Positions 2,519 through 63,248 of a DNA stretch of 64,000 nucleotides are shown piece after piece; positions within the stretch are counted from its first letter, which is position 1; each line of letters begins with the position of its first letter. The translations under genes and the position numbers were made by a program. The stretch is from Rickettsiales bacterium (GTDB taxonomy: Bacteria; Pseudomonadota; Alphaproteobacteria; Rickettsiales; UBA8987): NCBI GenBank assembly GCA_020630095.1, contig JAHDCD010000001.1, positions 133,698 to 197,697 on the forward strand, read 5' to 3'. The notes beneath the pieces were generated by a model that did no database searches, was not told the origin of the DNA, and saw only the letters and a program-made list of their open reading frames with translations.

Positions 2519-5500
2519 TTATCCAACTTCTAAAGTTTGATCTTGAGTCTCTACTCTAGCTGGTAGATCGCCATATTTTTCTTGAATTTCTTTTCCATTA
2601 TATGATGCGGCGAACCCTTTCCCTGTTTTTGTGTCTTCTGGGGAAATAACGGTTTCTACTTTTGCTTTATTGCCAACTATTGGCTGAGCGATAACAACCA
2701 TTTTTCCGTTCTCTTGAGTTTCTATCGGGTAAACGACTTTATGTTGTTCGGCTAAATCTTCATTAACTGTAAATGTTATAGATCCATCTTCATTTAAATT
2801 AACATGATCAGGGTGATAAAACACCACGGCATCCCCTGTAGGCTCTATTTTGCCATTTTTTCTGGCGCAAACATATTTAGTTTCACTATCTCGACTTTTA
2901 TCGGAGTTGTATTCTTTTATTGCATCCGCTTTTTGTTGTGTATTTGTGTTATCTTTAATACCAATTTTATCGCCTAAAGAGGTGCTTTTATATGTATCTG
3001 GCGCAGATGCTACAGGAGTTGGTGCATCTCTTCCTTCTTGTTCATTGCCCTCGATTGCGGATTCAATTGTATTTGGTGCGTTAAGCTCCTTGTCTGTTTC
3101 GGGTTCTTCTTCAATAGAATTATTTTTGCTAAGAATTTGCTCTCTATTTATACCTAGCTTCTTGGCTAATTTACTTTGAAGCTTTTCTAAAATATCTGGT
3201 TCGTAGATAGTTTCTTCCAATTTATTATCTAGGAAAGTATATGCTAATTCTTTTGATTCGTCCTCATTCTTACCTAGTTCTTTATATGTATTTACTAAGC
3301 TATCGAAGTTGTTTTTAAGATTTTCGTTAACTACCCTTAAGGCAATTTCATCTATTTTTTCTTCAAATCGTTCAATTCTTTCATCAAGTTGCCTTTTTTT
3401 ATCGTCTAAACTTGTCCAACCCCATTGAGTTGTTCCATGTAAGCTTTCTCTGCCTTTATCGGCTATTTTTTCTTTTATATCGTCTTTTCTTGCTTCAAGT
3501 TTTATTACTTTTTCTTCAAGCCTATTGGATTTTTTTTCTATATGTTTTTCTAATTTCTTTTGCGTTTTCTTTATCTCTTCTAAGGTGTCAACTGTGGTAT
3601 CAACTAATTTTTTAATGCCACCACCTTCACCGCGTAGGGTATCAAACTTGCCTTCTGTAAAGAAGTCATCTAATACGTCGCGAGTTGTATCGGCTTCTTG
3701 TGCTGTAGATATAACTTGTAAAACTTCTTTATAATCTTCTTCAAGTTCAGCTTGATCAATTCCAGAGTGAGATACTATATTTTCTAAAGTGTCCTTTGCG
3801 TATTGAATTGATTCTTCGGTATAGTTTTCGGCAACAAATTGGCTCTGTTCTAAATAGATACCTAGTGCGATGATATTCTTTTTATTACCATCTATTGCGC
3901 CTTTTCTTAATGGGCCGTCTTTAAATGTTCCGTTAAGTAGGTCGGACATTTGTTTATGAACGCCTATGTGAATTTTATTGCTTACCTTGAAGTCATAGTT
4001 ATTTTCATCCCAAGATCTTTCTAGCTTAATGCTTCTTGGGTAATATTCTCTTTCAGGCTCGTTATCTTCTAACTCAAGTTCATCACCGCCATCTATTGCT
4101 GGTGTAATATTTTCTGGATTATCTATAGAGCTTTCTGCTTTATCTAATGTGTCTAGATAAGGAGTTTCTTTATCTATAAATTTATTAAGTACTTTAGACC
4201 CAAGTTGAGTAAGTGCTGGAGCGGATAGGGTAAAGGCGCTGTAAGCGGCTAATGTTGCTGGGTATATTATAGGTGCTCCAAGTGTAGAACTTACTATACT
4301 TGCAGTTGCGCTGGTAAGTCCAAGTAGAGCTAGAGCTTCTCTTGGGGCTGTTTTAGGTCCCCATATTTTCGTTACGGCTATATCTATAGCTCTTTTTGTT
4401 TCGGCAAATCTTTCTTTAGGGCTTTTTCTATGAACATTCTCAGCAGTTAGTGTATCAACGTCTATATCCTCTGCATCTGCTGGAGTAGTTTCTTCTGTAG
4501 GTATCCCTGTAGTTTCGTTTGAATTTGCTTCAAGAGATTTGGAGGGTTTTCTTTTTTGACTTTCCTCTGGCGCGGGTGCGGGTGGAGCTGTAAGGGGTGT
4601 TATGGGCGCAGTAATAGGTTTTGTTTTTTGGTCGGGTAACTTCTCTATTTCGTCCTCTGCTTTTATAGCTGCAGGGGTAGCTTGCTCGTTAGCAAGTAGA
4701 TTCTCATTAACAACATTAAGTACCGCCTGAGATAAAGCTAATTCTTGCTCTTTTGATATACCATTTACGCTGAATGCACCAATAGCAGACATTACATCAA
4801 TATATTGAGCTATAGGTTTAAGTAACAATTCTATTTCTTTGGCTTTAGGAACATTATCATCATCAAATAGTTTTAATATTTGATTAGATATATTTTTTAT
4901 TTCTGTCTGTTTACCTGTTACATCTAGTGTTGAGCTTGTTGTAAATATGGTTAGTTCTTTTTTTTCCTCTTCTAATGCAGGCTCTTCTGTAAGAGGTTTA
5001 TCTTTTTTATTAAAAGGATTAAACTTTGAAAAGAAACTAGATTTATTGGGCTTAGTAATTTTATCAGGTTTTTCTGGGGCTTCATCAACTTCAAAAAAAG
5101 ATTTTTTTGGTAAAAACTTCGAAAGATGCTTTCCATCCGCATGATCAAATACGGCTTTTGCTTCTTCAGGAGATACAGTTTTAGGTTTGTTGGGTGATTC
5201 GTATTCAACGATTGGAAACTCACTACTTTTATACCTATCAGATGATAATGGTCTTCCGTCAATAAGGAGTCTATAGCTTTTATCTAATCCTGCTTCATCA
5301 ACGGCTTGATTGTAAAAAATTGATAAAACTTTTGTTAAATCAATATTATCGTTACTTAGTTCAATTATATTTCCAGTTCTATTTTTTAAGTTTTCTTTTA
5401 GCTTAGTTAATGTTTCTTCATATCTAATTCGTTTTGTTTGATCACCTTGGTTGTTTTCAAGGTCATCAGCAGCGATGTAAAACTCTTTTATAGTTTGATT

Positions 5501-5602
5501 AAGGCTAATTGCGTAATATGAAGCATCGCTTTGAGAAATGTCGCTAGAGAATGTAATGATGGTATCATTATATTCTGTTATGTTTGAATTATCTTCTGCC
5601 AT
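2519..5602 (-). CDS. Large acidic coiled-coil ORFan protein (1027 aa) with central bilobed hydrophobic segment
   Basis: Long uninterrupted ORF. Pro-rich linker PITAPITPLTAPPAPAPEE. Two adjacent hydrophobic helices at about residues 423-468 (4199..4336). Long Glu/Lys-rich heptad-like stretches. No recognisable enzymatic motif. Confidence 0.7.
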   Translation of the reverse strand: MAEDNSNITEYNDTIITFSSDISQSDASYYAISLNQTIKEFYIAADDLENNQGDQTKRIRYEETLTKLKENLKNRTGNIIELSNDNIDLTKVLSIFYNQAVDEAGLDKSYRLLIDGRPLSSDRYKSSEFPIVEYESPNKPKTVSPEEAKAVFDHADGKHLSKFLPKKSFFEVDEAPEKPDKITKPNKSSFFSKFNPFNKKDKPLTEEPALEEEKKELTIFTTSSTLDVTGKQTEIKNISNQILKLFDDDNVPKAKEIELLLKPIAQYIDVMSAIGAFSVNGISKEQELALSQAVLNVVNENLLANEQATPAAIKAEDEIEKLPDQKTKPITAPITPLTAPPAPAPEESQKRKPSKSLEANSNETTGIPTEETTPADAEDIDVDTLTAENVHRKSPKERFAETKRAIDIAVTKIWGPKTAPREALALLGLTSATASIVSSTLGAPIIYPATLAAYSAFTLSAPALTQLGSKVLNKFIDKETPYLDTLDKAESSIDNPENITPAIDGGDELELEDNEPEREYYPRSIKLERSWDENNYDFKVSNKIHIGVHKQMSDLLNGTFKDGPLRKGAIDGNKKNIIALGIYLEQSQFVAENYTEESIQYAKDTLENIVSHSGIDQAELEEDYKEVLQVISTAQEADTTRDVLDDFFTEGKFDTLRGEGGGIKKLVDTTVDTLEEIKKTQKKLEKHIEKKSNRLEEKVIKLEARKDDIKEKIADKGRESLHGTTQWGWTSLDDKKRQLDERIERFEEKIDEIALRVVNENLKNNFDSLVNTYKELGKNEDESKELAYTFLDNKLEETIYEPDILEKLQSKLAKKLGINREQILSKNNSIEEEPETDKELNAPNTIESAIEGNEQEGRDAPTPVASAPDTYKSTSLGDKIGIKDNTNTQQKADAIKEYNSDKSRDSETKYVCARKNGKIEPTGDAVVFYHPDHVNLNEDGSITFTVNEDLAEQHKVVYPIETQENGKMVVIAQPIVGNKAKVETVISPEDTKTGKGFAASYNGKEIQEKYGDLPARVETQDQTLEVG

Positions 5603-5686: not shown

Positions 5687-7513
5687 TTAGGCCGCTTCTT
5701 CGCTGTTCTTTTCTTCCTCTGTTGAGTTTTTCTTTTCTAGTAGCTCGCGTGCTTTAAGGCTTAGTTGAACGTTAAGCTCGCGTAGTTGTTTATCGTCAAC
5801 TAGGGCAGGGGCATTCATAAGTAAGTCTTGCGCCTTTTGATTCATAGGGAATGCAATAACTTCGCGGATATTAGGTTCATCACAAAGTAGCATTACAATT
5901 CTGTCGATACCTGGGGCAATACCACCATGTGGAGGAGCGCCAAACTTGAATGCGCGGATCATGCCGCCGAATTTCTCGTCAACAAAGGCTTCGTCGTAGC
6001 CAACAATGCCAAATGCTTTGTACATAATTTCTGGCTTGTGGTTACGAATTGCGCCAGATGAAAGTTCGATTCCGTTACAAACAATATCATACTGGTATGC
6101 TTTTATGGCAAGTAGATCTTCATCTGTTTTTGCGTTTTCTAGCACTTCCATTTCGCCTTGAGGCATTGAGAATGGGTTGTGTGAGAAGTCTATTTTGCCT
6201 TCGTCTTCATTATATTCGAAGTAAGGGAAGTCTACTACCCAGCAGAATTTGAATTCATTTTCATTTATTAAATCTAGGTCGTTCGCAAGTTCAACACGAA
6301 CCTTGCCCGCTAATTCTGCGGCGAAAAGTTCTGCACCAGCGGAGAAGAATACAGCATCGCCTGCGCCAGCGTTAGCTGTTTGCTTAATTTGTTCAATGCG
6401 GTCGGCATCTAAGTTGTTAGCAATAGGGCCTTTGCCATTGCCTTCTTCGTCGAAGTTAATGTAGCCCAAACCTTTTGCGCCGTGGCTTTGTGCGAATTCG
6501 ATTTTCTTATCGAAGAAGCTTCTTGCCTTTGTGCCGCATTTTGGTGCTGGAATTGCACGGACAACTTGCCCCGCTTCAACTGTTTTAGCGAATATGCCGA
6601 AGCCTGAGCCACGGAATATTTCGGATACGTCCGTTATCTCTAAATCGTAGCGTAAATCTGGCTTGTCCGAGCCGTATTTTAGCATTGCATCATCGTATGT
6701 GATGCGTGGGAATGGAGTTGACGTTACTTTTTTATCGGTGAATTTTGTGAATATGTGATTCATTAAATTCTCAGTTATTTCAAATACTTCATCTTGCGTT
6801 ACGAAGCTCATCTCCATATCTAGCTGGTAGAATTCACCAGGGGAGCGGTCTGCTCTAGCGTCTTCATCGCGGAAGCAAGGGGCAATTTGGAAATAGCGGT
6901 CGAAACCTGATACCATTAATAATTGCTTAAATTGCTGAGGGGCTTGCGGTAGTGCGTAGAAATGCCCAGGGTGGACACGGCTTGGCACTAAATAATCACG
7001 TGCGCCTTCTGGCGAGCTTGCTGTTAATATTGGCGTTTGGAATTCGTTAAAATTTGCATCCGTCATGTATCGGCGGATTTCGCTAATTACATTAGACCTT
7101 AGTAATATGTTCTTGTGTAGCTTGTCTTTTCTTAAATCTAAGAAGCGGTATTTTAGGCGCGTAGATTCAGGAAATTCTTTATCTGAATTTACTTCTAGCG
7201 GTAAAACATCTGCCGCAGATTCTAGCGTTATAGATGTTGCTTTAATTTCTATTTCACCAGTTGCTAAATTTTTATTAACGGCTTCATCTGCACGGGCGAT
7301 AACTTCGCCTTCAACTGTAATTACGCTTTCGTAACGGATGTTAATATCTTCCTCGGTTACAATTTGCGTGATGCCGTAATGGTCGCGTAAATCGATGAAG
7401 AAAACGCCGCCATGGTCACGCTTACGGTGAACCCAGCCGGAAAGCTTTACGCTCTCGCCGATATCGGCTTTGTTTAGTTGGTTACAGGTATGTGATCTAT
7501 AAGGATTAGTCAT
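5687..7513 (-). CDS. aspS: Aspartate--tRNA ligase
   Basis: 608 aa. OB-fold N-terminus ([22 protein letters not shown]). Class II motifs ([29 protein letters not shown]). Short Glu/Lys-rich C-terminal tail. Confidence 0.95.
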
Positions 7514-7598
7514 TGCGGTAATTGTTTACTTATTCATGCGGTTTTATTCAAGAAAAACCTTGCATAAGATGAGATTTTTGTACTATATATGTTGCACT

Positions 7599-8141
7599 AT
7601 GTCTTTAACTATTAAACAGAAAGAAGTTGCAGTTTGGTTAGTTGATAATACTACCCTTACTTTTGAACAAATTGCCGAATTTTGTAATCTACACCCTGTA
7701 GAGGTGCGTGGTATTGCTGATGGTGAGGTTGCAGCTAACTTTATGGGTGCTAACCCTGTTGGGCAAAAAATGATCTCTCTGGAGAATCTTGAAGATGCTC
7801 AAAAGGATAAAAATGTTGCACTTAAATTATTACCTGAGTTTGCGGCATATTTAAAATCTAATGAGAAGAAAACTTCTCGCTATACTCCGATTGCTCGTAG
7901 GCAGGATAAGCCAGATGCAATCTTATGGTTATTAAAGAAATATCCGACTATTAATGATTCGCAAATTTCGAAGTTAATAGGTACTACTAAGAAAACTATT
8001 ACTTCTATTCGTGATAAATCTCATAGTAAGTATCAGCAGTTAAAGCCTAAAGATCCTGTATTATTAGGTCTTTGTGGTCAGTCTGCGCTTAATATTGTTG
8101 CTGAAAAATTAGAAAAAGCGGCTGATAAAGAGTCTGCTTAA
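7599..8141 (+). CDS. trcR: DUF1013-family cell-cycle transcriptional regulator (TrcR-like)
   Basis: VAVWLVDNTTLTFEQIAEFCNLHPVEVRGIADGE matches the alphaproteobacterial DUF1013 N-terminus. ATG at 7599 is preferred over the ORF-track start at 7536. TTGCAT (7560) and TATATA (7584) lie 9 nt before the ATG. Confidence 0.7.
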   Translation: MSLTIKQKEVAVWLVDNTTLTFEQIAEFCNLHPVEVRGIADGEVAANFMGANPVGQKMISLENLEDAQKDKNVALKLLPEFAAYLKSNEKKTSRYTPIARRQDKPDAILWLLKKYPTINDSQISKLIGTTKKTITSIRDKSHSKYQQLKPKDPVLLGLCGQSALNIVAEKLEKAADKESA

Positions 8142-14201: not shown

Positions 14202-16022
14202 ATGTCTTTATTTGGTGACCCACTCAAAAAAACTAGTTTTCCTGCAGCTAACAATAGTGCGGCGGGGCAGCAGGTTGCCGAAAATAATTCGGAATTAAAA
14301 GATCAAGAACCTAATGCGAGTGTTAAAAATGCTAAGTCAGATTATGCATCGCTTGGTGAGCAGTTAGTTAAGCAAAATCTTATTACTCCGGATCAATTGG
14401 AAATTGCTAAGAAAGTGCAGCGCGAAACTGGTGGTGCGCAAATGATTGGTAATATTCTGGTAGAGATGGGCTTCATTACGGAGCATACTTTATCGGAAGT
14501 TTTAAGTACCGATAAAGGGATTGATACTTTTGACCCTTCAAATTCAATAGTAGACCCTGATATTGTTAAGCTTGTGCCTAAGGAGCTTGCAATGAACTTT
14601 AGGGCGGTGCCGATATCATCTGAAGATAATAAGATATATCTGGCGATGGTAGATATATATGATGTTGTTGCGCTTGATCGCTTGAAGATGCATCTGCCGG
14701 CGGAAAGTAAGATTGTGCCAATGCAATGTTCGCAAGCGGCACTTTCTGATCTGATTGATAATTACTATGAGTATGAATTATCGATTGATGGTATTTTGCG
14801 CGAGATTGAGCATTTGAATCGTGATGAGCTTGTTAAGCAGGCGTCTAACGAACAAAGTTACGTTAACCCAACGGTGCGTTTATTGGATGCGATTTTAATT
14901 GATGCGATTAGGCAAGGCGCATCGGATATTCACTTTGAGCCGGAGGGGGTTTTCGTAAGAGTTAGGTATCGTATTGATGGGCATTTAGTGCTTATCCGTT
15001 CATTCCATATTGATTATTGGAGTGCGGTGGTTGTGCGTATTAAGATTATTTCAGGCATGAATATTGCTGAAACTAGATTGCCTCAGGATGGTAGAATAGG
15101 GTATCAAGTATTGGGTCGCGAGATCGACTTCCGTGTATCTACTCAGCCAACTATTGATGGTGAGAACGTGGTAATGCGTATTCTTGATAAGAAGAATTCC
15201 TTATTGCCAATGGCTAAGCTTGGTTTAAGTAAAAAGAATATTGAGCGCTTGCAAAAAGCGATGAGTAAGCCGGAAGGAATTGTGGTTGTAACTGGTCCTA
15301 CTGGTTCTGGTAAAACGACAACTCTATATTCAATTCTTTCAGAAATTAATGATCTTTCGATTAATATTATGACCTTGGAGGATCCGGTAGAGTATCGCTT
15401 GCCGATGATTAGACAGTCTAATATTAGAGCGCAAGGTGGTATGGATTTCGCTGGTGGTATTAAGGCGGCGTTAAGGCAGGATCCGGACGTGATATTTGTA
15501 GGTGAGGTGCGTGATAATGAAACGGCAACGCTTGCTATGCGTGCTTCGATGACTGGTCATAAAGTATTTACATCACTGCATACAAATGATGCAATTGGTG
15601 CGATAACACGTTTAATCGATATTGGTTGTAATCCGCGTGTATTATCAGAAAATATTGTTGCAGTAATTGCGCAAAGGTTAATTAGAAAGCTTTGTGATAA
15701 TTGTAAAGCTACGCGTGATTCCACAATTAAAGAAAGGCAAATTCTTGGTGATGATGTGCAAACTGTTTATGCTCCTGAAGGTTGTAAAGAATGTGGCGGG
15801 CGTGGTTATAAAGGGCGTTTAGCGGTTACAGAAATTATCTTAATTGATGAGCATTTAACAGAGATGATTGGTAGTCAGGCATCTAAAGGGCAGATGATGA
15901 AATATATTAAAGAGAATACGGGCTTTATTTCTATGGCTTTAGATGGTTTGCAGAAGGTGCGTGATGGTGTAACTGATATTAAAGAGTTAGCGCGTTGTGT
16001 AGATATTACCGACAGGATGTAG
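14202..16022 (+). CDS. GspE/PilB-family secretion or type IV pilus assembly ATPase
   Basis: T2SSE_N-like N-terminus. Walker A GPTGSGKTTT, Walker B/Asp box DPDVIFVGEVRD, His box GHKVFTSLHTND, tetracysteine CDNCK...CKECGGRG. No other T2SS or T4P genes nearby. Confidence 0.9.
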   Translation: MSLFGDPLKKTSFPAANNSAAGQQVAENNSELKDQEPNASVKNAKSDYASLGEQLVKQNLITPDQLEIAKKVQRETGGAQMIGNILVEMGFITEHTLSEVLSTDKGIDTFDPSNSIVDPDIVKLVPKELAMNFRAVPISSEDNKIYLAMVDIYDVVALDRLKMHLPAESKIVPMQCSQAALSDLIDNYYEYELSIDGILREIEHLNRDELVKQASNEQSYVNPTVRLLDAILIDAIRQGASDIHFEPEGVFVRVRYRIDGHLVLIRSFHIDYWSAVVVRIKIISGMNIAETRLPQDGRIGYQVLGREIDFRVSTQPTIDGENVVMRILDKKNSLLPMAKLGLSKKNIERLQKAMSKPEGIVVVTGPTGSGKTTTLYSILSEINDLSINIMTLEDPVEYRLPMIRQSNIRAQGGMDFAGGIKAALRQDPDVIFVGEVRDNETATLAMRASMTGHKVFTSLHTNDAIGAITRLIDIGCNPRVLSENIVAVIAQRLIRKLCDNCKATRDSTIKERQILGDDVQTVYAPEGCKECGGRGYKGRLAVTEIILIDEHLTEMIGSQASKGQMMKYIKENTGFISMALDGLQKVRDGVTDIKELARCVDITDRM

Positions 16023-23084: not shown

Positions 23085-24764
<1,680 letters not shown>

Positions 24765-25116: not shown

Positions 25117-25194
25117 GTAATAAGTAATATATAGTGAGATATACCTTTTGGTGTGGCAATAATATGGGTTATTAATGGCTTAATTTCAAGTGTG

Positions 25195-28017
25195 ATGAAT
25201 AAATTTTTTATAAAAATCCTTAGTTTAATTTGTGTGGTTTCTATTATTTTAACCACAAGCCCCGAGTTTGGAAGGGCGAACGAGTATTTTGACTACGATA
25301 CTGTTAGTAGAAATAATACTAATCCTAGGCTTATTCAAGCTGCGGCATATGGTAATATTGCAATTGTAGAGCAAGAGTTGTTGGCAGGTGCAAATGTTAA
25401 TATGATAGGTGTGTCGGGTACAACGGCATTAATGCAGGCTGCGTATAATAACGACTTTGAAATGACTGAGTTTTTAATTCAGTCGGGTGCTAGCCTTGAC
25501 CAACGTGATAGAAATCAACGTACGGCGGCGGAATATGCGGCGGCGGCTGACAATGTGCGTATGATAGAGCTTTTAGGTGCGTATGGTGCGGATATTGATA
25601 AATTTATAGTAGGAAAAACAGATTATGGCAGTTTATTATATACAACATTAGGTGTTGTAGCTGTTTTAGCGGCTGCGGGTGCTTTAGGTACAGATGGAGA
25701 GCCGGAAGATTCTACTGGCGGTGGTGGTACAACGCCAACTGTTCCTACGCCAGACCCAGGAACTGGCGGTTCAACGCCAACTGGGAATGTGGTTATTCCC
25801 GTTGCTCCGGAATCTGGAACGGCCTCAACATTTGAAGACACTGAATATGGAACTTCTGGTGCGCATGCCATTGTAAATGCCTCAGCAGCTTATGCGCGTG
25901 GTTATGATGGCTCTGTATTTACTCGTGATGCTGATGGTGCAAACCCTGTATTGGATGCATCTAAGGCTGTTAGGGTTGCGGTAATTGATGGTGGCATTGA
26001 TATTCATCATACAGATTTAGACGATAATTTAGCTACAACAGGCGCTAGGTGTTTAACATCGGGGTGCTTTGGTGATGGTGATGCTAGTGCATCCGAAGAT
26101 AATCATGGTACATTAGTTTCTTCATTAATTTTAGGTGAAGATAATAATTCCGGTGCAATGGGTATTGCGCCTGATGCAAAATTAATTCCTATCAATGCAA
26201 TTACGGCGGGTGGCTCAACTTCACGTGCGTTTGCTCATGCGGTGGGTAATGGCGCAGATATTATTAATAATAGTTGGGGTATTACAGATTTAGCTGGTAG
26301 AGAGGTGTATATTGCTGGCAATTCTACCGCAGCGGATGCTCAAGCCGCATTTAGTGGTGAAAATCAATTTAATGGTATTACGGATGGCGTTAACAATGGC
26401 TCTGTATTTGTATTTGCTACAGGTAATAGTGGTAATTCTGAACCGAATATAGTTGCTGGCTTACCTTTCTATTTTAATGGTGCGGCTAATAATGGTATCA
26501 ATACTTCAAATGTAGATTTACGTAATAATTGGATTGCAGTTGGTGCGTATAGCGCATCTGGTACGAATAATTTAGCATCGTTCTCTAATGCTTGCGGTGT
26601 GGCTAAAGATTGGTGTTTAGTTGCCCCTGGTTCTAGCTTAACGGGTGCGGCTAATGGTGGTGCAACTACTGGGTCATCGGCTACAACATCTGAAACTGGT
26701 ACAAGTTTTGCGGCGCCTGTAGTTTCTGGTGCATTGGCAGTTGTAATGGGTGCGTTCCCGCATTTATCAACTGAGCAGGCGGCTAGTATTTTGTTACAAA
26801 CGGCTACAGATTTAGGTCCGGCGGGTGTTGATGAATTTACGGGGCATGGTTTATTAAATTTAGATTCTGCAACTACACCAGGTGGTTCATTTGTTGTACC
26901 TACGGGCGGTAGTGCAGGTGTTTCACAATTTAGTGCAACGGGTACGGGGTTGGCATTTGGTAGAGCTTCAGCCAGTGCAGTTGGTTCGGAGAACAAGTTA
27001 ATGGTTATAGATTACCTTGGGCGTAATACATATATTGATGTGAATGATTTTACTTCATCTAGCAATGAGCGCTCAGAAAGCGTGAATGATTTATATAATA
27101 AATTCTCTAACAATCCTGATATTGAATTTAACGATGGTAAAACGGAATTTACATTAACAACGCGTTTACAGAATCGTGATGAGCTTGATAGATTTTCAGA
27201 GGAAGATTTACAAGGTTTCCAATATAAAGAGCAATTAAACAAGAAGACTAAGGTGGGTTTTGCCTATAACATGCCAGTTGATAATTCTGGCATTGGTTTG
27301 AATCAGTCTGATAATATACTTAGTTTAGCTGAGAAAGGGTATTCAGCTTCAATTGAAGGGCAGGGCTATAAGTTAGGTTTATTCAATGGGGAGTCACTTG
27401 ATAATGAAGATATTAAGTCTTCAGGTATTTATGTGGAGCAGGATATTGCTAAAAATATTTCATTCATTGGTGGTATTATTAATGAAGAGAATAGTTTTGT
27501 AGGTAATGCATCTTCTGGTGCATTGGAAGTTGGTGAGGATAATATTACTGCATTTTATGGTTTGAAAGGTGGTTATGATTATTCACCGAATCTTTCATTT
27601 AACGCGGAAGCTATTTTAGCTAATACGGAGCTTTCGGATGCTCCAACGAGTTCATTGGTTAATGGTGCTAGTGACATTATGTCGTCGTCATTCAAGCTTG
27701 GTGCGGCGTATAATGGTTTATTTAAAGCTAATGATAATTTCTCTTTAAACATTGCTCAGCCGTTAAAGGTAGAGCAGGGTACGCTTAATATTGCTACGCC
27801 AACATCTATTTCGGCTGATGGTTCTATTGGTTATGAGAATGATAATTTAAACTTAGCTTCAGATGCTAGGCAGGTGGATTTAGGTTTTGATTATAACCTA
27901 AACTTTGGTCTTGGTACTTCATTAAAAGCGGGTGCTATATTAAAAATGAATCCTAATCATTCATCGGATTACGAGAATGAATCGACAGGCTTCATAAGAT
28001 TGCAGCATAATTTCTAG
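25195..28017 (+). CDS. Ankyrin-repeat / subtilisin-like (S8) serine protease autotransporter
   Basis: Signal peptide MNKFFIKILSLICVVSIILT. About 3 ANK repeats (25321..25602), then a hydrophobic helix and a Gly/Thr/Pro linker. S8 triad contexts VAVIDGGID, HGTLVSS, GTSFAAPVVSG. C-terminal beta-barrel ending LQHNF. The ORF extends to a GTG at 25153. Confidence 0.8.
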   Translation: MNKFFIKILSLICVVSIILTTSPEFGRANEYFDYDTVSRNNTNPRLIQAAAYGNIAIVEQELLAGANVNMIGVSGTTALMQAAYNNDFEMTEFLIQSGASLDQRDRNQRTAAEYAAAADNVRMIELLGAYGADIDKFIVGKTDYGSLLYTTLGVVAVLAAAGALGTDGEPEDSTGGGGTTPTVPTPDPGTGGSTPTGNVVIPVAPESGTASTFEDTEYGTSGAHAIVNASAAYARGYDGSVFTRDADGANPVLDASKAVRVAVIDGGIDIHHTDLDDNLATTGARCLTSGCFGDGDASASEDNHGTLVSSLILGEDNNSGAMGIAPDAKLIPINAITAGGSTSRAFAHAVGNGADIINNSWGITDLAGREVYIAGNSTAADAQAAFSGENQFNGITDGVNNGSVFVFATGNSGNSEPNIVAGLPFYFNGAANNGINTSNVDLRNNWIAVGAYSASGTNNLASFSNACGVAKDWCLVAPGSSLTGAANGGATTGSSATTSETGTSFAAPVVSGALAVVMGAFPHLSTEQAASILLQTATDLGPAGVDEFTGHGLLNLDSATTPGGSFVVPTGGSAGVSQFSATGTGLAFGRASASAVGSENKLMVIDYLGRNTYIDVNDFTSSSNERSESVNDLYNKFSNNPDIEFNDGKTEFTLTTRLQNRDELDRFSEEDLQGFQYKEQLNKKTKVGFAYNMPVDNSGIGLNQSDNILSLAEKGYSASIEGQGYKLGLFNGESLDNEDIKSSGIYVEQDIAKNISFIGGIINEENSFVGNASSGALEVGEDNITAFYGLKGGYDYSPNLSFNAEAILANTELSDAPTSSLVNGASDIMSSSFKLGAAYNGLFKANDNFSLNIAQPLKVEQGTLNIATPTSISADGSIGYENDNLNLASDARQVDLGFDYNLNFGLGTSLKAGAILKMNPNHSSDYENESTGFIRLQHNF

Positions 28018-40210: not shown

Positions 40211-40603
40211 ATGAAAAAATTATTTTTAGCATTAGTATTAACTACAGGTTTAGTATCTACAGCAGAAGCTAGAGACTTCAATGGTGATGGCATTATTACA
40301 GTTGAAGAGGCTAAACAATTCAGAGCAAATTATGACACTGATGGTGATGGCAAGCTTTCTAAAACTGAAAGAGCGCCTTTAAGAGAAAAAGCTAAGGAAA
40401 GACGTTCTGTAGTTAGAGATAAATTTGATGCAGATGGTTCTGGTAAGCTTAATAAAGAGGAGAGAAAAGCGGCTAGAGAATATAGAAAAGAAAACCGCCC
40501 TAAATTAAGCGATGAACTTAGAGAAAAAACTAAGGAAAGACGTGCTAAGCGTAAAGATAAACGAAAAGAACGCAGAGCTCAAAGGCGTGGTAATGTTAAC
40601 TAG
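40211..40603 (+). CDS. Secreted EF-hand-like calcium-binding protein
   Basis: Signal peptide. Three DxDxDG-type loops (DFNGDGIITVEE, DTDGDGKLSKTE, DADGSGKLNKEE). Arg/Lys-rich tail. Confidence 0.65.
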   Translation: MKKLFLALVLTTGLVSTAEARDFNGDGIITVEEAKQFRANYDTDGDGKLSKTERAPLREKAKERRSVVRDKFDADGSGKLNKEERKAAREYRKENRPKLSDELREKTKERRAKRKDKRKERRAQRRGNVN

Positions 40604-40900: not shown

Positions 40901-42577
40901 TCAGGTCCTAATTCTATCTTTATTTAAATCAAAATAGACTCTAGTACCTTCACCTTTTGAGGATTTAATTTTTAACTCAGAGCCATGCAATTCAACAAAG
41001 ACCTTACACATAGGTAAGCCTAAACCTGTACCGCCTTTAGCAAGTTCAGAATGTACCTGACCAAAGGTAGATAACGCCTTTGGAATATCGGCTTCATCCA
41101 TACCTATACCGGTATCAGAAACCATTATACGAATCTTTCCATTCTCTCTTCTATAAATATCTAACTTAATTATTCCTTCAGATGGCGTATATTTATCTGC
41201 ATTAGAAATTAAATTAATTAGAACCTGTTTAATCCTACGAGAATCTACTTTAACTTTAGGTAAATCGGGCTCAATTTCATCGATAATTCTAGCTTTATCT
41301 TTAGAGTCATTATTAGTAAAGCTACCTAAAGATTCATGCACAATATCGTTTAAATCAACGATAGATTCTTGAATATCAAGCTTACCAGCCTCCCCCTTGG
41401 AAAATTCCAATATATCTGTAACTAAACTTAATAAATGATGCCCCGAATCATTTATATCAATAATCCGCTCTTCTTGCTTTTCATTGATATCACCAAAGAA
41501 CCTACCTTTAAGCATATCTGAAAAACCTATTATAGCATTTAAAGGAGTCCTAAGTTCGTGACTCATATTAGCTAAAAATTCACTCTTTGACTGACTAGCG
41601 GCAATTGCACCTAGCTCGGCTTTTTTAGCTTCTTCAGTTTTTCTATTTAGAATTAAAGCAAATAAACCAATAATTGCTGCAAATAACGCAAATATAAGGA
41701 AAAATAGAATATCTAACATTCTGTTTTCACGCCACTCGGAATAAATATCACCATCATCAACGAATATTGCAACATCAACACCTATCGATTCAATATTTTG
41801 CAATGCAATCACCCCCTCTTCAATTGCAAACGGGTTTGCGATTGCTTTTGCCAAGCCGCCTTTTTCAAAAAGATGCTTAGTTTGCTTAATTATATTAGGA
41901 TTCTCAATTGTAGATATAAGTGCATTCGTATTCTTACGCATTAAGTGAATTTTTTTACTTTCAAAGCTTGAATCAATAGATTTAAAGAAATCAAATATAT
42001 AGGAAGCATCAACAAATGTTGCAACTACACCATTAAATGAACCGTCCACACCTATAGACTCGCGCGAGAGAACAAAATAAACCTTCCCGCCAGCCTCATA
42101 TAAAAAGATTTCCAATTTATTTTCATAAGACTCAACATGATTTGAAAAGAACGGATATTTTGCTACAGAAGCATTGTATTTCAAGCCAATTTCATCACCA
42201 GTTTTCTCAAAGAAAGACTTAACAAGCCCTTCTTCATTAATAACCATCAATGCCGCTATTTGTGGTATTTCTTCACTCCACATTTTTAGGCTATTTTGAA
42301 CATCTAGATAGATTGTATTGCCAAAAAGCTCATTAACATATTGTTTTTGCTGAACTCTCTTTAGTGTCATATCCGAGGCCAAAAGGATGATCTCAATATG
42401 ATCTGACGTCATATTAGTAATCTGTGAAACCTCACGATTACCCTCAGATGCCGCTTCATTATAACCTGCTGAGGCACGAAAAATAACAAACAATAAATTG
42501 ATTAATAAAATAAAAATCAGCGCTATAATAATAACGCTCGATGTTTGTTTAGAAGTTATTTTAATAAATTTTAGCAC
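40901..42577 (-). CDS. Sensor histidine kinase (periplasmic Cache-like domain, intact catalytic core)
   Basis: Two TM segments flank a ~270-aa sensor domain. H-box SHELRTPLNAI, N-box NLISNADKYT, DTGIGM, GGTGLGL. Confidence 0.85.
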   Translation of the reverse strand: MLKFIKITSKQTSSVIIIALIFILLINLLFVIFRASAGYNEAASEGNREVSQITNMTSDHIEIILLASDMTLKRVQQKQYVNELFGNTIYLDVQNSLKMWSEEIPQIAALMVINEEGLVKSFFEKTGDEIGLKYNASVAKYPFFSNHVESYENKLEIFLYEAGGKVYFVLSRESIGVDGSFNGVVATFVDASYIFDFFKSIDSSFESKKIHLMRKNTNALISTIENPNIIKQTKHLFEKGGLAKAIANPFAIEEGVIALQNIESIGVDVAIFVDDGDIYSEWRENRMLDILFFLIFALFAAIIGLFALILNRKTEEAKKAELGAIAASQSKSEFLANMSHELRTPLNAIIGFSDMLKGRFFGDINEKQEERIIDINDSGHHLLSLVTDILEFSKGEAGKLDIQESIVDLNDIVHESLGSFTNNDSKDKARIIDEIEPDLPKVKVDSRRIKQVLINLISNADKYTPSEGIIKLDIYRRENGKIRIMVSDTGIGMDEADIPKALSTFGQVHSELAKGGTGLGLPMCKVFVELHGSELKIKSSKGEGTRVYFDLNKDRIRT

Positions 42578-42583
42578 TTACTC

Positions 42584-43324
42584 CTAAGCTATCACTCCAG
42601 TAACACAACTCCAGTAGTTTTTTGGTAAGCTTTTTTGAATCTTTAAAGCATCTAGCTGATTATCAAAAATAGCAAAGCACGTAGCACCTGAACCAGACAT
42701 TCCATAACGCTTGTTTTTAGATAGTAAATTCAATAAATTTTCTATCTCAGGTTCAACTTCACATGCAAATTTAGTTAAATGATTCTCACCTTCTAACTCG
42801 CTCAATCTAACTTTTTTAAAAACATCTACAGTAGATACATGAACATTCGGATTAACTAATAAAATATAGCACTTAATAAACTCATCTAACAATTTAATTT
42901 GCTCACCTATTCCACTGAATATTAAAGGCTTTGAATATACACATGCCGGAACATCCGCCCCTAGCTCTAATCCAATTTCACAAAGCTCTTTTTTACTTAA
43001 GTTTAAATTATATTGCTTATTAAACCAATTAAGCGCTACCGCGGCATCCGCCGAACCACCGCCTAATCCTGCACCTACAGGTATATTTTTCTTTAAATTA
43101 TAGGTGGTTTTAGCTTTTATATTAAACTTAGATTTCATCAAGAATATAGCCTTATCAACTATATTATCCTCAATATGACCACCCTGCCCGTTATCTCCAA
43201 CAAAGAATTCTATCTCATCATATAAATCAGAGGCAAATACGCACAAGCTCTCGAGTTCATGATAACCATTTGGTAATTTCCCACGAATATATAGGTTAAG
43301 GTTTATTTTTGCGTGAGCTTTCAC
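42584..43324 (-). CDS. ispE: 4-diphosphocytidyl-2-C-methyl-D-erythritol kinase
   Basis: KINLNLYIRGKLPNGYHELES and GHMP motif PVGAGLGGGSADAA. Confidence 0.85.
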   Translation of the reverse strand: MKAHAKINLNLYIRGKLPNGYHELESLCVFASDLYDEIEFFVGDNGQGGHIEDNIVDKAIFLMKSKFNIKAKTTYNLKKNIPVGAGLGGGSADAAVALNWFNKQYNLNLSKKELCEIGLELGADVPACVYSKPLIFSGIGEQIKLLDEFIKCYILLVNPNVHVSTVDVFKKVRLSELEGENHLTKFACEVEPEIENLLNLLSKNKRYGMSGSGATCFAIFDNQLDALKIQKSLPKNYWSCVTGVIA

Positions 43325-59430: not shown

Positions 59431-60181
59431 TTACTTAAATGATAATGCTAATCCTGTATTTGTTCCAACTATGGGTGCGTTACATGATGCGCATCTTTCG
59501 TTGGTGGAAAAGGCTAAAGAATTTTCTAATAATATATTGGTTTCGATATTTGTTAACCCGCTACAGTTTAATAATGAAGGGGATTTAAAGCATTACCCAA
59601 GAACTGAAGGTGAGGATATAGCAAAGCTTGAGGAGCAAGGTTTAGCGAAAGCCGTTTTTATACCGTCTGTTGATGAGCTATATGAGAATAATGTAGATAA
59701 TTTTGAGGTGAATATTAACCCTAAAATTGGCAAGGTTTTATGCGGTGCTCATCGTGATGGGCATTTTGAAGGTGTGTGTAAAGTGTTGATGGTTTTTAAT
59801 GATTTAATTAAGCCATCAAATTTAATATTAGGCGCTAAAGATTACCAGCAACTCTTTGTAATCAGTAGGTTGTTTGAAGAGTTTAACTTTAACACTGAAG
59901 TTATTGGCGCGCCATTGATGCGTGAAGATGATGGGCTTGCAATGTCTAGCCGTAATTTACGCTTAACTGATAATGGGCGCAAGATTGCGCCTGAGATTTA
60001 TAGATCTTTAACTAATATAGCATCGGATAAATTAACTATAGAGAGTGAGGCTAAGCGTTTAACTGAACTTGGTTTTGAAATTGATTATTTTGAAGTGCGT
60101 AATTTAAGTGGTAAACAAAATAGGATTTTCATTGCAGCGTTTATTGATGGAGTTAGGTTGATAGATAATTTAGAGATATGA
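59396..60181 (+). CDS. panC: Pantoate--beta-alanine ligase
   Basis: FVPTMGALHDAHLSLV, GAKDYQQ, MSSRN. Confidence 0.92.
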   Translation: MIVIRTKADLSNYLNDNANPVFVPTMGALHDAHLSLVEKAKEFSNNILVSIFVNPLQFNNEGDLKHYPRTEGEDIAKLEEQGLAKAVFIPSVDELYENNVDNFEVNINPKIGKVLCGAHRDGHFEGVCKVLMVFNDLIKPSNLILGAKDYQQLFVISRLFEEFNFNTEVIGAPLMREDDGLAMSSRNLRLTDNGRKIAPEIYRSLTNIASDKLTIESEAKRLTELGFEIDYFEVRNLSGKQNRIFIAAFIDGVRLIDNLEI

Positions 60182-61233
60182 TTAATAATTTAGCTAAAAA
60201 TATACTTCATAAACTTGAACCGGAGAAGGCTCATAATACATCTATTTGGGCGCTGAGGAATGATTTATATATTAAGCCTAAGGCCCAAGAATTTGCTAAT
60301 TTAGAAACGCAAGTTTTTGGAATTAACTTTAAGAACCCTGTAGGGTTTGCCGCGGGGTATGATAAGAACGCGGAAGTTATAAAATCTATCCATAATTTTG
60401 GCTTTGGCTTTACTGAGGTTGGTACATGTACGCCGTTGGCACAGGCTGGTAATGCGAAGCCGCGTATATTTAGATTAACTGAAGATAGAGCGATTATTAA
60501 TCGCTTAGGGTTTAACAATAAAGGTGCAGATTACTTTATTAAACAATTAGTTAACCGCGCAGATACTGGCATAGTTGGCGCTAATATTGGTAAAAATAAA
60601 GATACTGAAGACCCGTTTGCTGATTATGATATTATGCTTAAGAAGGTGTGGGGTTTATCTGATTATATTACGATTAATATATCTTCTCCGAATACGCCGA
60701 ACTTGCGCGATATTCAAAAAAAGGAGTATATTGAAGAGTTTTTAGGCAATATAAAAGCAGCGCGTAAGAAGTTGCAGGATAAAACAGGCGAGAACTACCC
60801 TATTCTATTAAAGGTTGCACCAGATGTTGAGGAAAAAGAAATTAAAAATATCGCAAACGCATCAATTAAGGCGGAGTTAGACGGTTTGATTATATCTAAT
60901 ACTACAATTTCGCGCGATAATATTACTATGGATATTGATGAGCAGGGTGGGCTTTCAGGTGCGCCTTTACTGGATAAATCTACAGAGGTTCTAAAGGAGT
61001 TTTATAAAATTACTCGTGGCTCTAATGTTAAACTTATTGGTGTTGGAGGGGTGGACTCGGCGCAAAATGCTTATGCTAAGATAAAAGCAGGAGCTAGTTT
61101 GGTGCAGGTTTACACGGGCTTTATTTATAAAGGCGTTAATATTGCTAATGAGATTAAAGTGGGTTTATCTGAATTGGTAGAGAAAGATGGCTTTAGGAGT
61201 GTTGAAAATGCCGTGGGTGTGGATTTAGATTAA
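60178..61233 (+). CDS. pyrD: Dihydroorotate dehydrogenase (quinone), class 2
   Basis: GFGFTEVGTCTP, NISSPNTPNLR, GVGGV...GASLVQVYTG. Confidence 0.92.
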   Translation: MINNLAKNILHKLEPEKAHNTSIWALRNDLYIKPKAQEFANLETQVFGINFKNPVGFAAGYDKNAEVIKSIHNFGFGFTEVGTCTPLAQAGNAKPRIFRLTEDRAIINRLGFNNKGADYFIKQLVNRADTGIVGANIGKNKDTEDPFADYDIMLKKVWGLSDYITINISSPNTPNLRDIQKKEYIEEFLGNIKAARKKLQDKTGENYPILLKVAPDVEEKEIKNIANASIKAELDGLIISNTTISRDNITMDIDEQGGLSGAPLLDKSTEVLKEFYKITRGSNVKLIGVGGVDSAQNAYAKIKAGASLVQVYTGFIYKGVNIANEIKVGLSELVEKDGFRSVENAVGVDLD

Positions 61234-61271
61234 AATTGACTTAAGTCTATATTCTTCAATTATCTTAATCA

Positions 61272-63248
61272 ATGCATGTAGCTGAAAATATTAACATTCT
61301 ATATGGTCTTATTTTGGGGCTGATGCTACTTTGCGTATTCTTAATTCTTTCTAAAAGGAAATTAAAGAAATCTTCTAATCAAATATCGACTGATAAAAAT
61401 GATCTTAATGAAAAGGTTAGCTTGTTAAGCCAAGAGTCTGAATTAAAAGGATCTTTGATAGATATATTTGACAATATATCTAAGCCGATATGGGTATTTT
61501 CTGCTAATGGAAATATTATCTATTGTAACTCAGCCTATGCAGATTTGGTGGAAGAGGATGAGGAAGAGATTTTTGCAAAGAAGATTAACTTATGTAATGA
61601 GTATAAGGTTGAGGATAAGCCCGTTAGAACTCATATTATTTCACATGGTAAGCGTAACTTTTATGAGCTTACAAAGAGTAAGAAAGGGGAGTTTTTTATC
61701 GGTATTGCTCAAGATGTTACGGAAGTTGAGCGTGAGTTAGCTAATTTAAAATATAATATGGCAGTGCAGAATGACCTGCTAGATAGCTCCGCAAGTGGAA
61801 TTGCAATATATGATTCAAATCAGAATTTAACTTATAATAATAGTTCATTTACTAAGCTATTTTCGCTGGATGATAGTTTTTTAAATAGAAATCCAGCATT
61901 CGGCGAGGTTTTGGAGAATCTGCGTACGAAGTCTATGTTACCAGAGCAAGCGAATTTTGGGCAGTTTAAGCAAGAAGCGCTTGAGATGTTTGAAAATCTA
62001 ATTGGTAAGCATGAGGAGTTTTATTACCTACCGGATGGGCGCGTATTGCGTATTATTGTATTGCCACATCAGAGTGGTGGCTTGTTATTCTCTTATGAGG
62101 ATATGACCAACCAGATAACGCTGGAGCAGTCTTATAATACGTTACTTTCGGTACAGAAATCTACGATTGATAATTTGGCGGAGGGTGTTGCGGTGATTGG
62201 CGAAGATGGGCGCTTACAATTCGCTAACCCTACTTTCCGTAAAATGTGGGGGTTTGAGCGTGAATTTTTAGATTCTAAACCGCATGTTAACGAGGTTTCA
62301 GAGCAGGCGCGTGATAAGTTTAAGAGTGATAAGGATTATATTATTTCTAATAATATAATCATGAAATCCATCTCGGAACATACACCTGCTACAGGTAGCG
62401 TTAGGCTGGCGGATGGAAGTTTATATGAATGGGCGGCGATTCCTCTGCCGGATGGCGCGATATTGCTTACCTTTGTGGATTTAACGGATTCAGCGATGCT
62501 TGAGCAAGCGTTGCGTGCGGAGAAAAAAGCATTGGAAGATGTTCATAAAGTTAAGATTAATTTCCTTACCAACGTATCTAATGAATTGCGTTCTCCGTTG
62601 ACATCTATTAAAGGATTCTCGGAATTGTTGAAGGCGAATTACTTTGGTGATCTTAATGAAAAACAGGGTGAATATGTTGAGGATATTTATCAATCTTCAT
62701 TGCGTTTAGCATCTATGATTGATGATATTTTAGATGTTACTTATTTAGAGGCGGGTAGCTTGCTTTATGAAGAGTATGACTTTAGTGCGAGCAAGGTATT
62801 TGAGAAAGTATTTGCTAGAACTGAGGAACGTGCGGAAGAAAGTAAAATTAATTTAACGCGCAATAAGTTTACCGAAAATGTGGTGCTTAATGGTGATCAA
62901 AAACATTATAAACAGGCGTTAAATAGTTTCTTTGTTTATGCGTTAAAGCTTGTTCCACATAAGGGTAAAATGGATATTGGACAATCTATCGACGATGAGA
63001 AATATCATATATCGATAAAGTTAGATTATAGCCAAGGGGATTTGTCTAGACTTTCTGAGCTGAAACACTTCAATGATGAGGACTTTATGGGCTCTGACCT
63101 TAATTTAATCATTGCAAAGAAGTTCATAGAAATTCATAAAGGCGTATTGCAGGTTGATGAAGAAAAGGATGGTATGCTTGAATTAGGGCTTTCTTTTATA
63201 GTCAATGAGCATCAAAAGCTATTAGAGTTCGAAAAAGATCAAGGTTAG
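61272..63248 (+). CDS. DivL-like PAS-domain pseudo-histidine kinase (H-box His replaced by Asn, degenerate ATP-binding boxes)
   Basis: N-terminal TM and PAS-like repeats. H-box FLTNVSNELRSPLTSIKGF with AAT (Asn) at 62580-62582 where His is expected. N-box QALNSFFVYALK lacks both Asn residues. G1 and G2 boxes are degenerate (LDYSQGD, GSDLNL). Confidence 0.75.
   Translation: MHVAENINILYGLILGLMLLCVFLILSKRKLKKSSNQISTDKNDLNEKVSLLSQESELKGSLIDIFDNISKPIWVFSANGNIIYCNSAYADLVEEDEEEIFAKKINLCNEYKVEDKPVRTHIISHGKRNFYELTKSKKGEFFIGIAQDVTEVERELANLKYNMAVQNDLLDSSASGIAIYDSNQNLTYNNSSFTKLFSLDDSFLNRNPAFGEVLENLRTKSMLPEQANFGQFKQEALEMFENLIGKHEEFYYLPDGRVLRIIVLPHQSGGLLFSYEDMTNQITLEQSYNTLLSVQKSTIDNLAEGVAVIGEDGRLQFANPTFRKMWGFEREFLDSKPHVNEVSEQARDKFKSDKDYIISNNIIMKSISEHTPATGSVRLADGSLYEWAAIPLPDGAILLTFVDLTDSAMLEQALRAEKKALEDVHKVKINFLTNVSNELRSPLTSIKGFSELLKANYFGDLNEKQGEYVEDIYQSSLRLASMIDDILDVTYLEAGSLLYEEYDFSASKVFEKVFARTEERAEESKINLTRNKFTENVVLNGDQKHYKQALNSFFVYALKLVPHKGKMDIGQSIDDEKYHISIKLDYSQGDLSRLSELKHFNDEDFMGSDLNLIIAKKFIEIHKGVLQVDEEKDGMLELGLSFIVNEHQKLLEFEKDQG

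Follow-up and report, generated by a model that had tools for sequence, protein, structure and literature searches.

An orthologue of DivL with asparagine at the phospho-acceptor position and a decayed catalytic domain in a low-GC alphaproteobacterium

We analysed a 64,000-nucleotide stretch of contig JAHDCD010000001.1 from a Rickettsiales bacterium (assembly GCA_020630095.1), which we call the window. The gene considered here is an open reading frame (ORF) at 61272..63248 on the forward strand. It starts with ATG, is uninterrupted, and encodes a protein of 658 amino acids (it reads FLTNVSNELRSPLTSIKGF). It is flanked by panC and pyrD upstream and by xth downstream. A preliminary description of the window called the product a DivL-like pseudo-histidine kinase. 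Among bacteria, DivL is the standard example of a histidine kinase that has been converted to a sensor and scaffold. The gene and its parts are as follows.

61272..63248, forward strand: divL orthologue, 658 amino acids, with a transmembrane helix, three PAS domains, a dimerisation and histidine phosphotransfer (DHp) domain and a degenerate catalytic and ATP-binding (CA) domain (ORF, Pfam, PDB sequence match, family profile, AlphaFold2)
61281..61364, forward strand: hydrophobic N-terminal helix, residues 4-31, ILYGLILGLMLLCVFLIL, a probable membrane anchor (AlphaFold2 helix)
61449..61751, forward strand: PAS-1, about residues 60-160, the least conserved of the PAS domains (Pfam PAS match at 65-107; AlphaFold2 PAS fold)
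61752..62147, forward strand: PAS-2, about residues 161-292, of the PAS_7 type, the best-conserved sensor domain (Pfam PAS_7 at 171-285, 3.6e-26)
62148..62483, forward strand: PAS-3, about residues 293-404 (Pfam PAS_4 and PAS_8 at 298-406)
62484..62762, forward strand: DHp (HisKA) two-helix hairpin, residues 405-497 (HisKA at residues 429-495, 6.5e-17; AlphaFold2 helices 405-454 and 463-494)
62580..62582, forward strand: AAT codon for Asn437, inside KINFLTNVSNELRSPLTSIKGF, at the position of Tyr550 in DivL and of the phospho-acceptor His in HisKA (PDB alignment, MAFFT)
62763..63206, forward strand: degenerate CA (ATP-binding-like) domain, residues 498-645 (without a Pfam HATPase_c match; AlphaFold2 fold; Foldseek)
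62937..62939, forward strand: TAT codon for Tyr556, in place of the N-box Asn (Asn in 115 of 119 homologues)
63024..63041, forward strand: G1 box remnant DYSQGD (DxGxG in the family; G587S)
63090..63107, forward strand: G2 box remnant GSDLNL (GxGLGL in the family; G609D and G611N)

The Pfam matches to the protein are three PAS-type domains (PAS_7, PAS_8 and PAS_4) and HisKA. HATPase_c finds no match in it even at E<=1, unlike all of its listed homologues, which have PF02518. NCBIfam has no DivL-specific model, and the protein reaches only generic kinase models there, below their cut-offs. Structure prediction recovers what the profile misses. AlphaFold2, run with an alignment of 110 sequences, gives a model with a mean pLDDT (predicted local distance difference test) of 88.5, in which the transmembrane-like helix, three PAS folds and the DHp hairpin are followed by a complete alpha/beta CA fold (residues 502-643, pLDDT about 90). 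When the model is searched against the PDB with Foldseek, its DHp-CA core resembles RetS, GacS and DivL (4q20), with target-normalised TM-scores of 0.62 to 0.77. The full-length model mainly retrieves phytochromes and multi-domain PAS kinases of a generic kind, with low TM-scores, so only the DHp-CA matches are informative. The structure prediction proposed at the outset is thus confident for both DHp and CA, the latter with its ligand-binding residues gone. The CA domain falls under the Pfam threshold yet is structurally recognisable, and since both AlphaFold2 and Foldseek recover it, the domain is kept as a fold. This is the architecture of DivL, in which a membrane anchor and several PAS domains precede a DHp and a CA fold, and the DHp hairpin is presumed to be the module for dimerisation and for docking of phosphorylated DivK (DivK~P).

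It is worth considering how specific the match to DivL is. Among all PDB sequences the best match of the protein is Caulobacter DivL (4q20, 2e-17), and the alignment places N437 opposite Tyr550 in VSYELRTPLT. The intact kinase encoded at 40901..42577 in the same window serves as a control, and it ranks DivL just 11th among its PDB matches, so the match of the 658-residue protein is specific. From 5.8 billion proteins, hundreds of full-length PAS_7/HisKA homologues were retrieved, with E values down to 1e-138, and the best non-self homologue is 43% identical. The 119 that were listed were aligned with MAFFT. All 119 of these closest homologues have the motif VSYELR[S/T]PLT, with Tyr where the phospho-acceptor His would be (the H position). 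A family profile built from 110 sequences again ranks DivL 4q20 first in the PDB (5.8e-61). As the profile matches DivL first and the homologues carry the Tyr motif, the family is DivL and our protein a divergent member of it. The preliminary description was right about the type of protein, a DivL-type pseudo-histidine kinase. By these alignments it is an orthologue and not a mere analogue.

This changes how the substitution should be read. Codon 437 does lie at the phospho-acceptor position, as first proposed, but the change was described there as His replaced by Asn. The nearest relatives carry Tyr, so the substitution is Tyr to Asn, which takes one transversion (TAT/TAC to AAT). That relatives might carry His had been named as grounds for doubt, and this does not apply. 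One can imagine a scenario where an active HisKA kinase unrelated to DivL independently exchanged its His for Asn, and His-to-Asn HisKA proteins do exist elsewhere (see L009 and L010 below). It would require the full-length architecture and the PAS_7 match to the DivL family, with E values down to 1e-138, to be misleading, along with the top rank of DivL among solved structures and the Tyr in every one of the nearest homologues. We consider this scenario very improbable, and reject it as contradicted by the Tyr homologues and the profile match. By the hallmark Tyr of the SYELR motif the protein would not be called DivL, as it has Asn437. In the functional sense, that of a residue that is not phosphorylatable, Asn437 agrees with DivL.

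The Asn variant was called unusual in the preliminary description, and it is. For the survey, 150 sequences from an exhaustive search of the 1.84 billion cluster representatives were added, which gave 264 other family members. At the H position 255 have Tyr, 5 have His, and Phe, Cys, Asp and Ser occur once each. Asn is found only in our protein, 1 of the 265 family members examined. The single non-Tyr members were retrieved with a DivL query and are P0197 (Asp), P0204 (Cys), P0194 (Phe) and P0178 (Ser); those with His, retrieved in the same way, are P0138, P0191, P0200, P0211 and P0259. The His-bearing ones may be genuine orthologues of DivL, whether reverted or ancestral, or neighbouring active kinases. 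Relatives sharing the Asn turned up neither among the 5.8 billion proteins of the full-length search nor among the 1.84 billion representatives searched exhaustively. Metagenome contigs were scanned with a degenerate DNA pattern for FLxx[V/I/M]SNELR[S/T]PLT[S/T]I, which gave two matches, neither of them DivL. Both are unrelated high-GC HisKA proteins without DivL architecture.

These two proteins are worth a remark of their own. They lie at 522..1823 of L009 and 6435..7412 of L010, both on the forward strand, and have Asn at the phospho-acceptor position (SVTNELRTPLTSM in L010 and GLVSNELRTPLTTM in L009). The H-box region reads GLVSNELRTPLT in L009 and SVTNELRTPLT in L010. In the L010 protein the N, G1 and G2 boxes are intact, and its gene overlaps a downstream response-regulator-like gene at 7409..8140. 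Judging from these motifs it is apparently an ATP-competent His-to-Asn kinase.

A residue that is not shared by any relative, and that is one base away from Tyr or His, raises the question of an error at 62580, with TAT or CAT read as AAT. The preliminary description had raised it too. An independently produced Logan assembly of run SRR14415274 (L008, 2674 bp), reached via the adjacent PyrD, is 100% identical to positions 60018-62691 of the window over its whole length, AAT included. This excludes an assembly or polishing error but not every error, since the reads may be the same. An artefact is further disfavoured because the four independent CA-box substitutions N556Y, G587S, G609D and G611N cannot be one error, and they show the same loss of catalytic constraint. 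With an identical assembly and independent changes in the CA boxes we reject a sequencing error, which we would give only a very slim chance.

The catalytic boxes are degenerate, as was first reported. The N-box reads KQALNSFFVYALK where the family consensus is KQILFNLLSNAIK. The claim that it lacks both Asn residues also stands: N552 has become Ser and N556 has become Tyr, positions at which 110 and 115 of the 119 homologues have Asn, and the lone Asn at 551 is one residue out of register. The G1 box has changed from DxGxG to DYSQG (G587S), the G2 box from GxGLGL to GSDLNL (G609D and G611N), and HGG to HKG. In active HATPase_c kinases the N-box Asn coordinates Mg-ATP. An active HisKA/HATPase_c kinase has a phospho-acceptor His and intact N, G1 and G2 boxes, and our protein has neither. 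From its motifs it is predicted not to bind ATP. The kinase at 40901..42577 (reverse strand), used for comparison in the preliminary description, is intact as stated there: its N, G1 and G2 boxes are complete, Pfam HATPase_c matches it, and its H-box is of the PleC/DivJ/CckA type.

The loss can be localised by comparing domains. Family-conserved columns are those conserved at >=90% in 109 homologues, and identity is given relative to the family median.

PAS-1: 5 of 10 conserved columns kept, relative identity 0.72
PAS-2: 44 of 54 conserved columns kept, relative identity 0.72
PAS-3: 22 of 25 conserved columns kept, relative identity 0.72
DHp: 37 of 42 conserved columns kept, relative identity 0.82
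CA: 9 of 20 conserved columns kept, relative identity 0.45

Only the CA domain falls disproportionately, so the relaxation is confined to it. Across the 120 sequences the median of the mean identity to the family is 0.46 for this domain, and our protein has the lowest value, 0.21. The DHp is if anything under tighter constraint than the sensor domains. It is tempting to see a pseudogene in the making with no function left, given that the hallmark residue and the catalytic boxes are lost and that the identity to the family is the lowest of all. A dying gene would be hard to reconcile with an uninterrupted frame of 658 codons, with 103 of the 121 family-conserved columns of PAS-2, PAS-3 and DHp retained, and with an AlphaFold2 model that is confident across all domains. 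We find this hardly credible and reject it on account of the intact ORF, the conserved columns and the confident model.

Erosion of the CA domain is not peculiar to this protein. The G2 box is imperfect in roughly a quarter of the homologues. P0004 and P0007 carry Tyr and show stronger CA decay, with most of the ATP lid deleted and a G2 box that reads DTGLEL, and the CA domain is also eroded in P0009, P0037, P0084 and P0090. Several Tyr-bearing homologues have decayed independently, so CA erosion recurs in the DivL family outside the Rhodobacterales. The nearest relatives of our protein, P0002 and P0006, have intact catalytic boxes, which means its own decay is independent. In the extent of CA-box loss it is at the extreme end of the family.

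DivK~P docks on the DHp of Caulobacter DivL, where R553, T557, Y562, H579 and A601 affect binding or signalling (PMC4211667). The docking surface lies on DHp helix 1 and the output helix and comprises R553, T557, Y562, H579, D595 and A601. The alignment to 4q20 shows that R440, T444 and D482 of our protein correspond to R553, T557 and D595 of DivL and are identical to them. At the other three positions it differs from Caulobacter DivL, with Phe for Y562, Tyr for H579 and Thr for A601. Tyr is the family consensus at the H579 position (EYV). For A601 the family, too, has Ala as its consensus residue (DLASIEAG), so the Thr is specific to our protein.

We argue that the gene encodes a phosphochemistry-free orthologue of DivL in a low-GC, uncultured alphaproteobacterium, in which Tyr has been replaced by Asn and the CA residues have decayed while the PAS, DHp and CA folds are kept. 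We are confident of this, short of certainty. Caulobacter DivL is membrane-anchored, dimeric and kinase-dead; it switches the bifunctional kinase CckA, and thereby CtrA, between kinase and phosphatase modes. It acts on CckA through PAS-to-PAS contacts, and its DHp helix senses the response regulator DivK by docking the phosphorylated form. From this function and from the retained PAS domains, R440, T444 and D482 we infer that our protein works in the same manner. Its PAS domains would signal to CckA and toggle it. The DHp would dimerise and probably still dock DivK~P, with a non-phosphorylatable Asn437 in its H-box. The CA domain would be a vestigial structural remnant that binds no nucleotide. 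CtrA would be the output of the pathway, as in Caulobacter, and probably feeds back on divL transcription through a CtrA-type box just upstream of the gene.

The published biochemistry fits this reading. DivL shows neither autokinase nor phosphatase activity, and its binding of ATP is weak. Phosphorylation of the DHp and the CA domain itself can both be dispensed with for its essential functions, and specific binding of DivK~P survives the Y550F exchange (PMC4211667). CckA is regulated by PAS domains B to D of DivL acting through PAS-B of CckA, and PAS-A is dispensable in vitro (bioRxiv 10.1101/323444). Caulobacter DivL has four PAS domains and our protein has three. The one missing here appears to be the N-terminal PAS-A, since homologues of about 800 residues align from about residue 170-200.

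The box mentioned above belongs to a larger set, which the preliminary description had treated as a CtrA-type regulon in the window. The motif is TTAA-N7-TTAA, and the two relevant entries are these.

61230..61244, forward strand: CtrA-type box TTAAAATTGACTTAA (TTAA-N7-TTAA), which overlaps the stop codon of pyrD and ends 28 nt before the ATG of divL (motif search)
5638, 9868, 22898, 25085, 28342, 45120, 48031, 49386, 53553, 54271, 58343 and 61230: start positions of the 12 intergenic 15-nt boxes

The co-occurrence holds up in intergenic DNA, where 12 boxes are observed against an expected 2.2 +/- 1.5, and none of 1000 dinucleotide shuffles reaches 12. Over the whole window the count is 15 against 9.4 expected, which is not significant. 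Because the boxes are enriched in intergenic DNA a CtrA-type regulon is supported, and the motif counts suggest that it is a sizeable one in the source organism. CtrA would bind at 61230..61244 too. TrcR, the other element said to co-occur with the gene, is indeed encoded in the window (ORF 7536..8141, Pfam PF06242, 7.8e-50). Boxes also lie upstream of aspS, of groEL (23085..24746) and of an ankyrin-subtilase gene, among others.

Several points weigh against our reading. No divK, cckA, chpT or ctrA was seen within the 64-kb window, so the DivL pathway is deduced from the boxes and TrcR alone. Residue 550 is not neutral in Caulobacter, since Y550H causes growth and morphology defects (PMC4211667). 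Close relatives are absent, the best DivL being 43% and the best AspS 72% identical. The gene order is panC-pyrD-divL-xth, where the nearest homologues have ahcY-divL-tsaE. To these must be added that the Logan assembly L008 may share its reads with the deposited genome.

The first of these points bears on a different scenario for the same gene, in which DivK was lost, the DHp-CA pair is in early decay, and the protein acts on CckA through its PAS domains alone. Losing the Tyr and the ATP pocket would then be the first steps towards a short, PAS-only DivL. The Rhodobacterales have followed such a path, from DivK loss through long degenerate DivLs (Oceanicella, Albimonas) to short DivL (PMC9430884). 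The presence of DHp-CA correlates with that of DivK, and in having a CtrA box upstream our gene is similar to cluster B, in which DivK is missing and CtrA controls divL (PMC2877005). Here the protein has lost its hallmark Tyr as well as its CA boxes. However, DHp is relatively better kept than PAS (0.82 against 0.72, with 37 of 42 columns). R440, T444 and D482 of the docking surface are still in place, and the window encodes a kinase with a PleC/DivJ/CckA-type H-box. One can reply that DHp conservation could stem from dimerisation alone. We regard decay after DivK loss as possible but rather unlikely.

The gene order bears on another alternative. The gene could be a diverged divL paralogue, drifting or in a new role, while a canonical DivL with the Tyr, encoded at another locus, does the standard job. 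It lies outside the conserved ahcY-divL-tsaE neighbourhood, it is the most divergent family member in every domain, and only 64 kb of the genome are in view. No second copy was seen within those 64 kb. The uniform divergence of PAS and DHp (0.72 to 0.82) is what a long branch leading to the organism as a whole would give; AspS is also at 72%. Disproportionate decay is confined to the CA domain. We consider a paralogue improbable, and keep to the reading of the gene as the DivL orthologue of this organism.

The neighbourhood of the nearest homologues is itself conserved. L005 (4686..8492), L006 (2860..6684) and L007 (137..3961) each carry divL in an ahcY-divL-tsaE-APH-NTP_transferase cluster, in which divL starts 6 to 8 nt after ahcY.

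It remains to place the protein among known systems. The closest is DivL of Caulobacter crescentus (CC_3484; PDB 4q20). In both, a membrane anchor and tandem PAS domains are followed by a DHp and a CA fold, and both have a non-phosphorylatable residue in a VSxELR[ST]PLT context with R553, T557 and D595 conserved; the target-normalised TM-score between the folds is about 0.74. They differ in the residue itself, Tyr550 against Asn, and in gene neighbourhood. Apart from the Tyr, Caulobacter DivL keeps the H, N, G1, F and G2 motifs (PMC4211667), whereas N, G1 and G2 are broken here.

The preliminary description took the Tyr of DivL as the only well-known precedent for losing the His. This was too narrow. 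Magnetospirillum magneticum DivL is a natural orthologue with another non-phosphorylatable residue in place of Tyr, Ala there and Asn here (Childers et al. 2014, PMC4211667), and our survey adds the Phe, Cys, Asp and Ser members. The long degenerate DivLs of Oceanicella actignis and Albimonas pacifica and the short PAS-only DivLs of the Rhodobacterales have a decayed catalytic module with the PAS domains kept, as in our protein (PMC9430884). CtrA boxes occur upstream of divL in lineages without DivK, as they do here (PMC9430884; PMC2877005). The degenerate and short DivLs are from Rhodobacterales without DivK, though, and our protein has a well-kept DHp.

A more distant parallel is RetS of Pseudomonas aeruginosa (6dk7, 6dk8, 7n0e). 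In the structural comparison its DHp-CA ranks with the best matches (target-normalised TM-score about 0.75). RetS has a histidine-kinase fold and signals by protein-protein contact with GacS and not by its own phosphorelay; the RetS-GacS co-complex in entry 7n0e illustrates such kinase-to-kinase contact. It belongs to an unrelated lineage with another sensor architecture, and the likeness is at the generic kinase core only.

Kinase-independent function, a DivL with Ala, degenerate catalytic modules and truncated DivLs are all already published. The Asn437 variant is rare but unsurprising within this known pattern, and it is not a new kind of system. Asn in place of Tyr550 and a dismantled ATP pocket, next to an intact DHp and PAS array, do provide independent evolutionary support for the kinase-independent model of DivL. 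The protein also suggests a ready-made allele, Y550N together with the N-, G1- and G2-box changes, for probing the roles of the Tyr and of residual ATP binding.

One can go further and suppose that this is a natural minimal DivL pseudokinase that has neither the Tyr nor a nucleotide pocket and still senses DivK~P and controls CckA. We put this forward tentatively, and think it unlikely to hold in full. If it were true, neither Tyr550 nor nucleotide binding would be required for phospho-specific recognition of DivK, and the Asn side chain might replace Tyr as a hydrogen-bond partner of the phospho-aspartate. It would also mean a DivL/DivK-type polarity module in a Rickettsiales-like and possibly host-associated lineage. 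To our knowledge the classical members of the Rickettsiales retain only CckA-CtrA.

The source organism can be described a little further. The window has a GC content of about 37%. The named nearest relatives of its AspS come from metagenome-assembled genomes labelled Rickettsiales or Rickettsiaceae, at no more than 72% identity. The gene at 25153..28017 (forward strand) encodes a 954-residue protein with N-terminal ankyrin repeats and a subtilase domain (Peptidase_S8), a eukaryote-like combination that is typical of host-associated bacteria. At 40211..40603 (forward strand), adjoining the intact histidine kinase at 40901..42577, there is a 130-residue EF-hand protein; such proteins are uncommon in bacteria. 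The two together are a hint of host association.

Three further genes deserve mention. The ORF at 2519..5602 (reverse strand) is a large orphan of 1027 residues with no Pfam match at 1e-6 and no NCBIfam match at 1e-10. The ispE ORF at 42584..43324 (reverse strand) has 246 residues and covers just about the first 195 of 294 profile positions; it may be a truncated gene, contain a frameshift or have a mis-set start. The gene at 14202..16022 (forward strand) encodes a PilB/GspE-type ATPase of a type 4 pilus or type II secretion system, with an N-terminal MshE-related motif for binding cyclic di-GMP (NF053729, 1.8e-14). On the strength of that motif, pilus assembly may be controlled by cyclic di-GMP in an organism that also bears a CtrA-type regulon.

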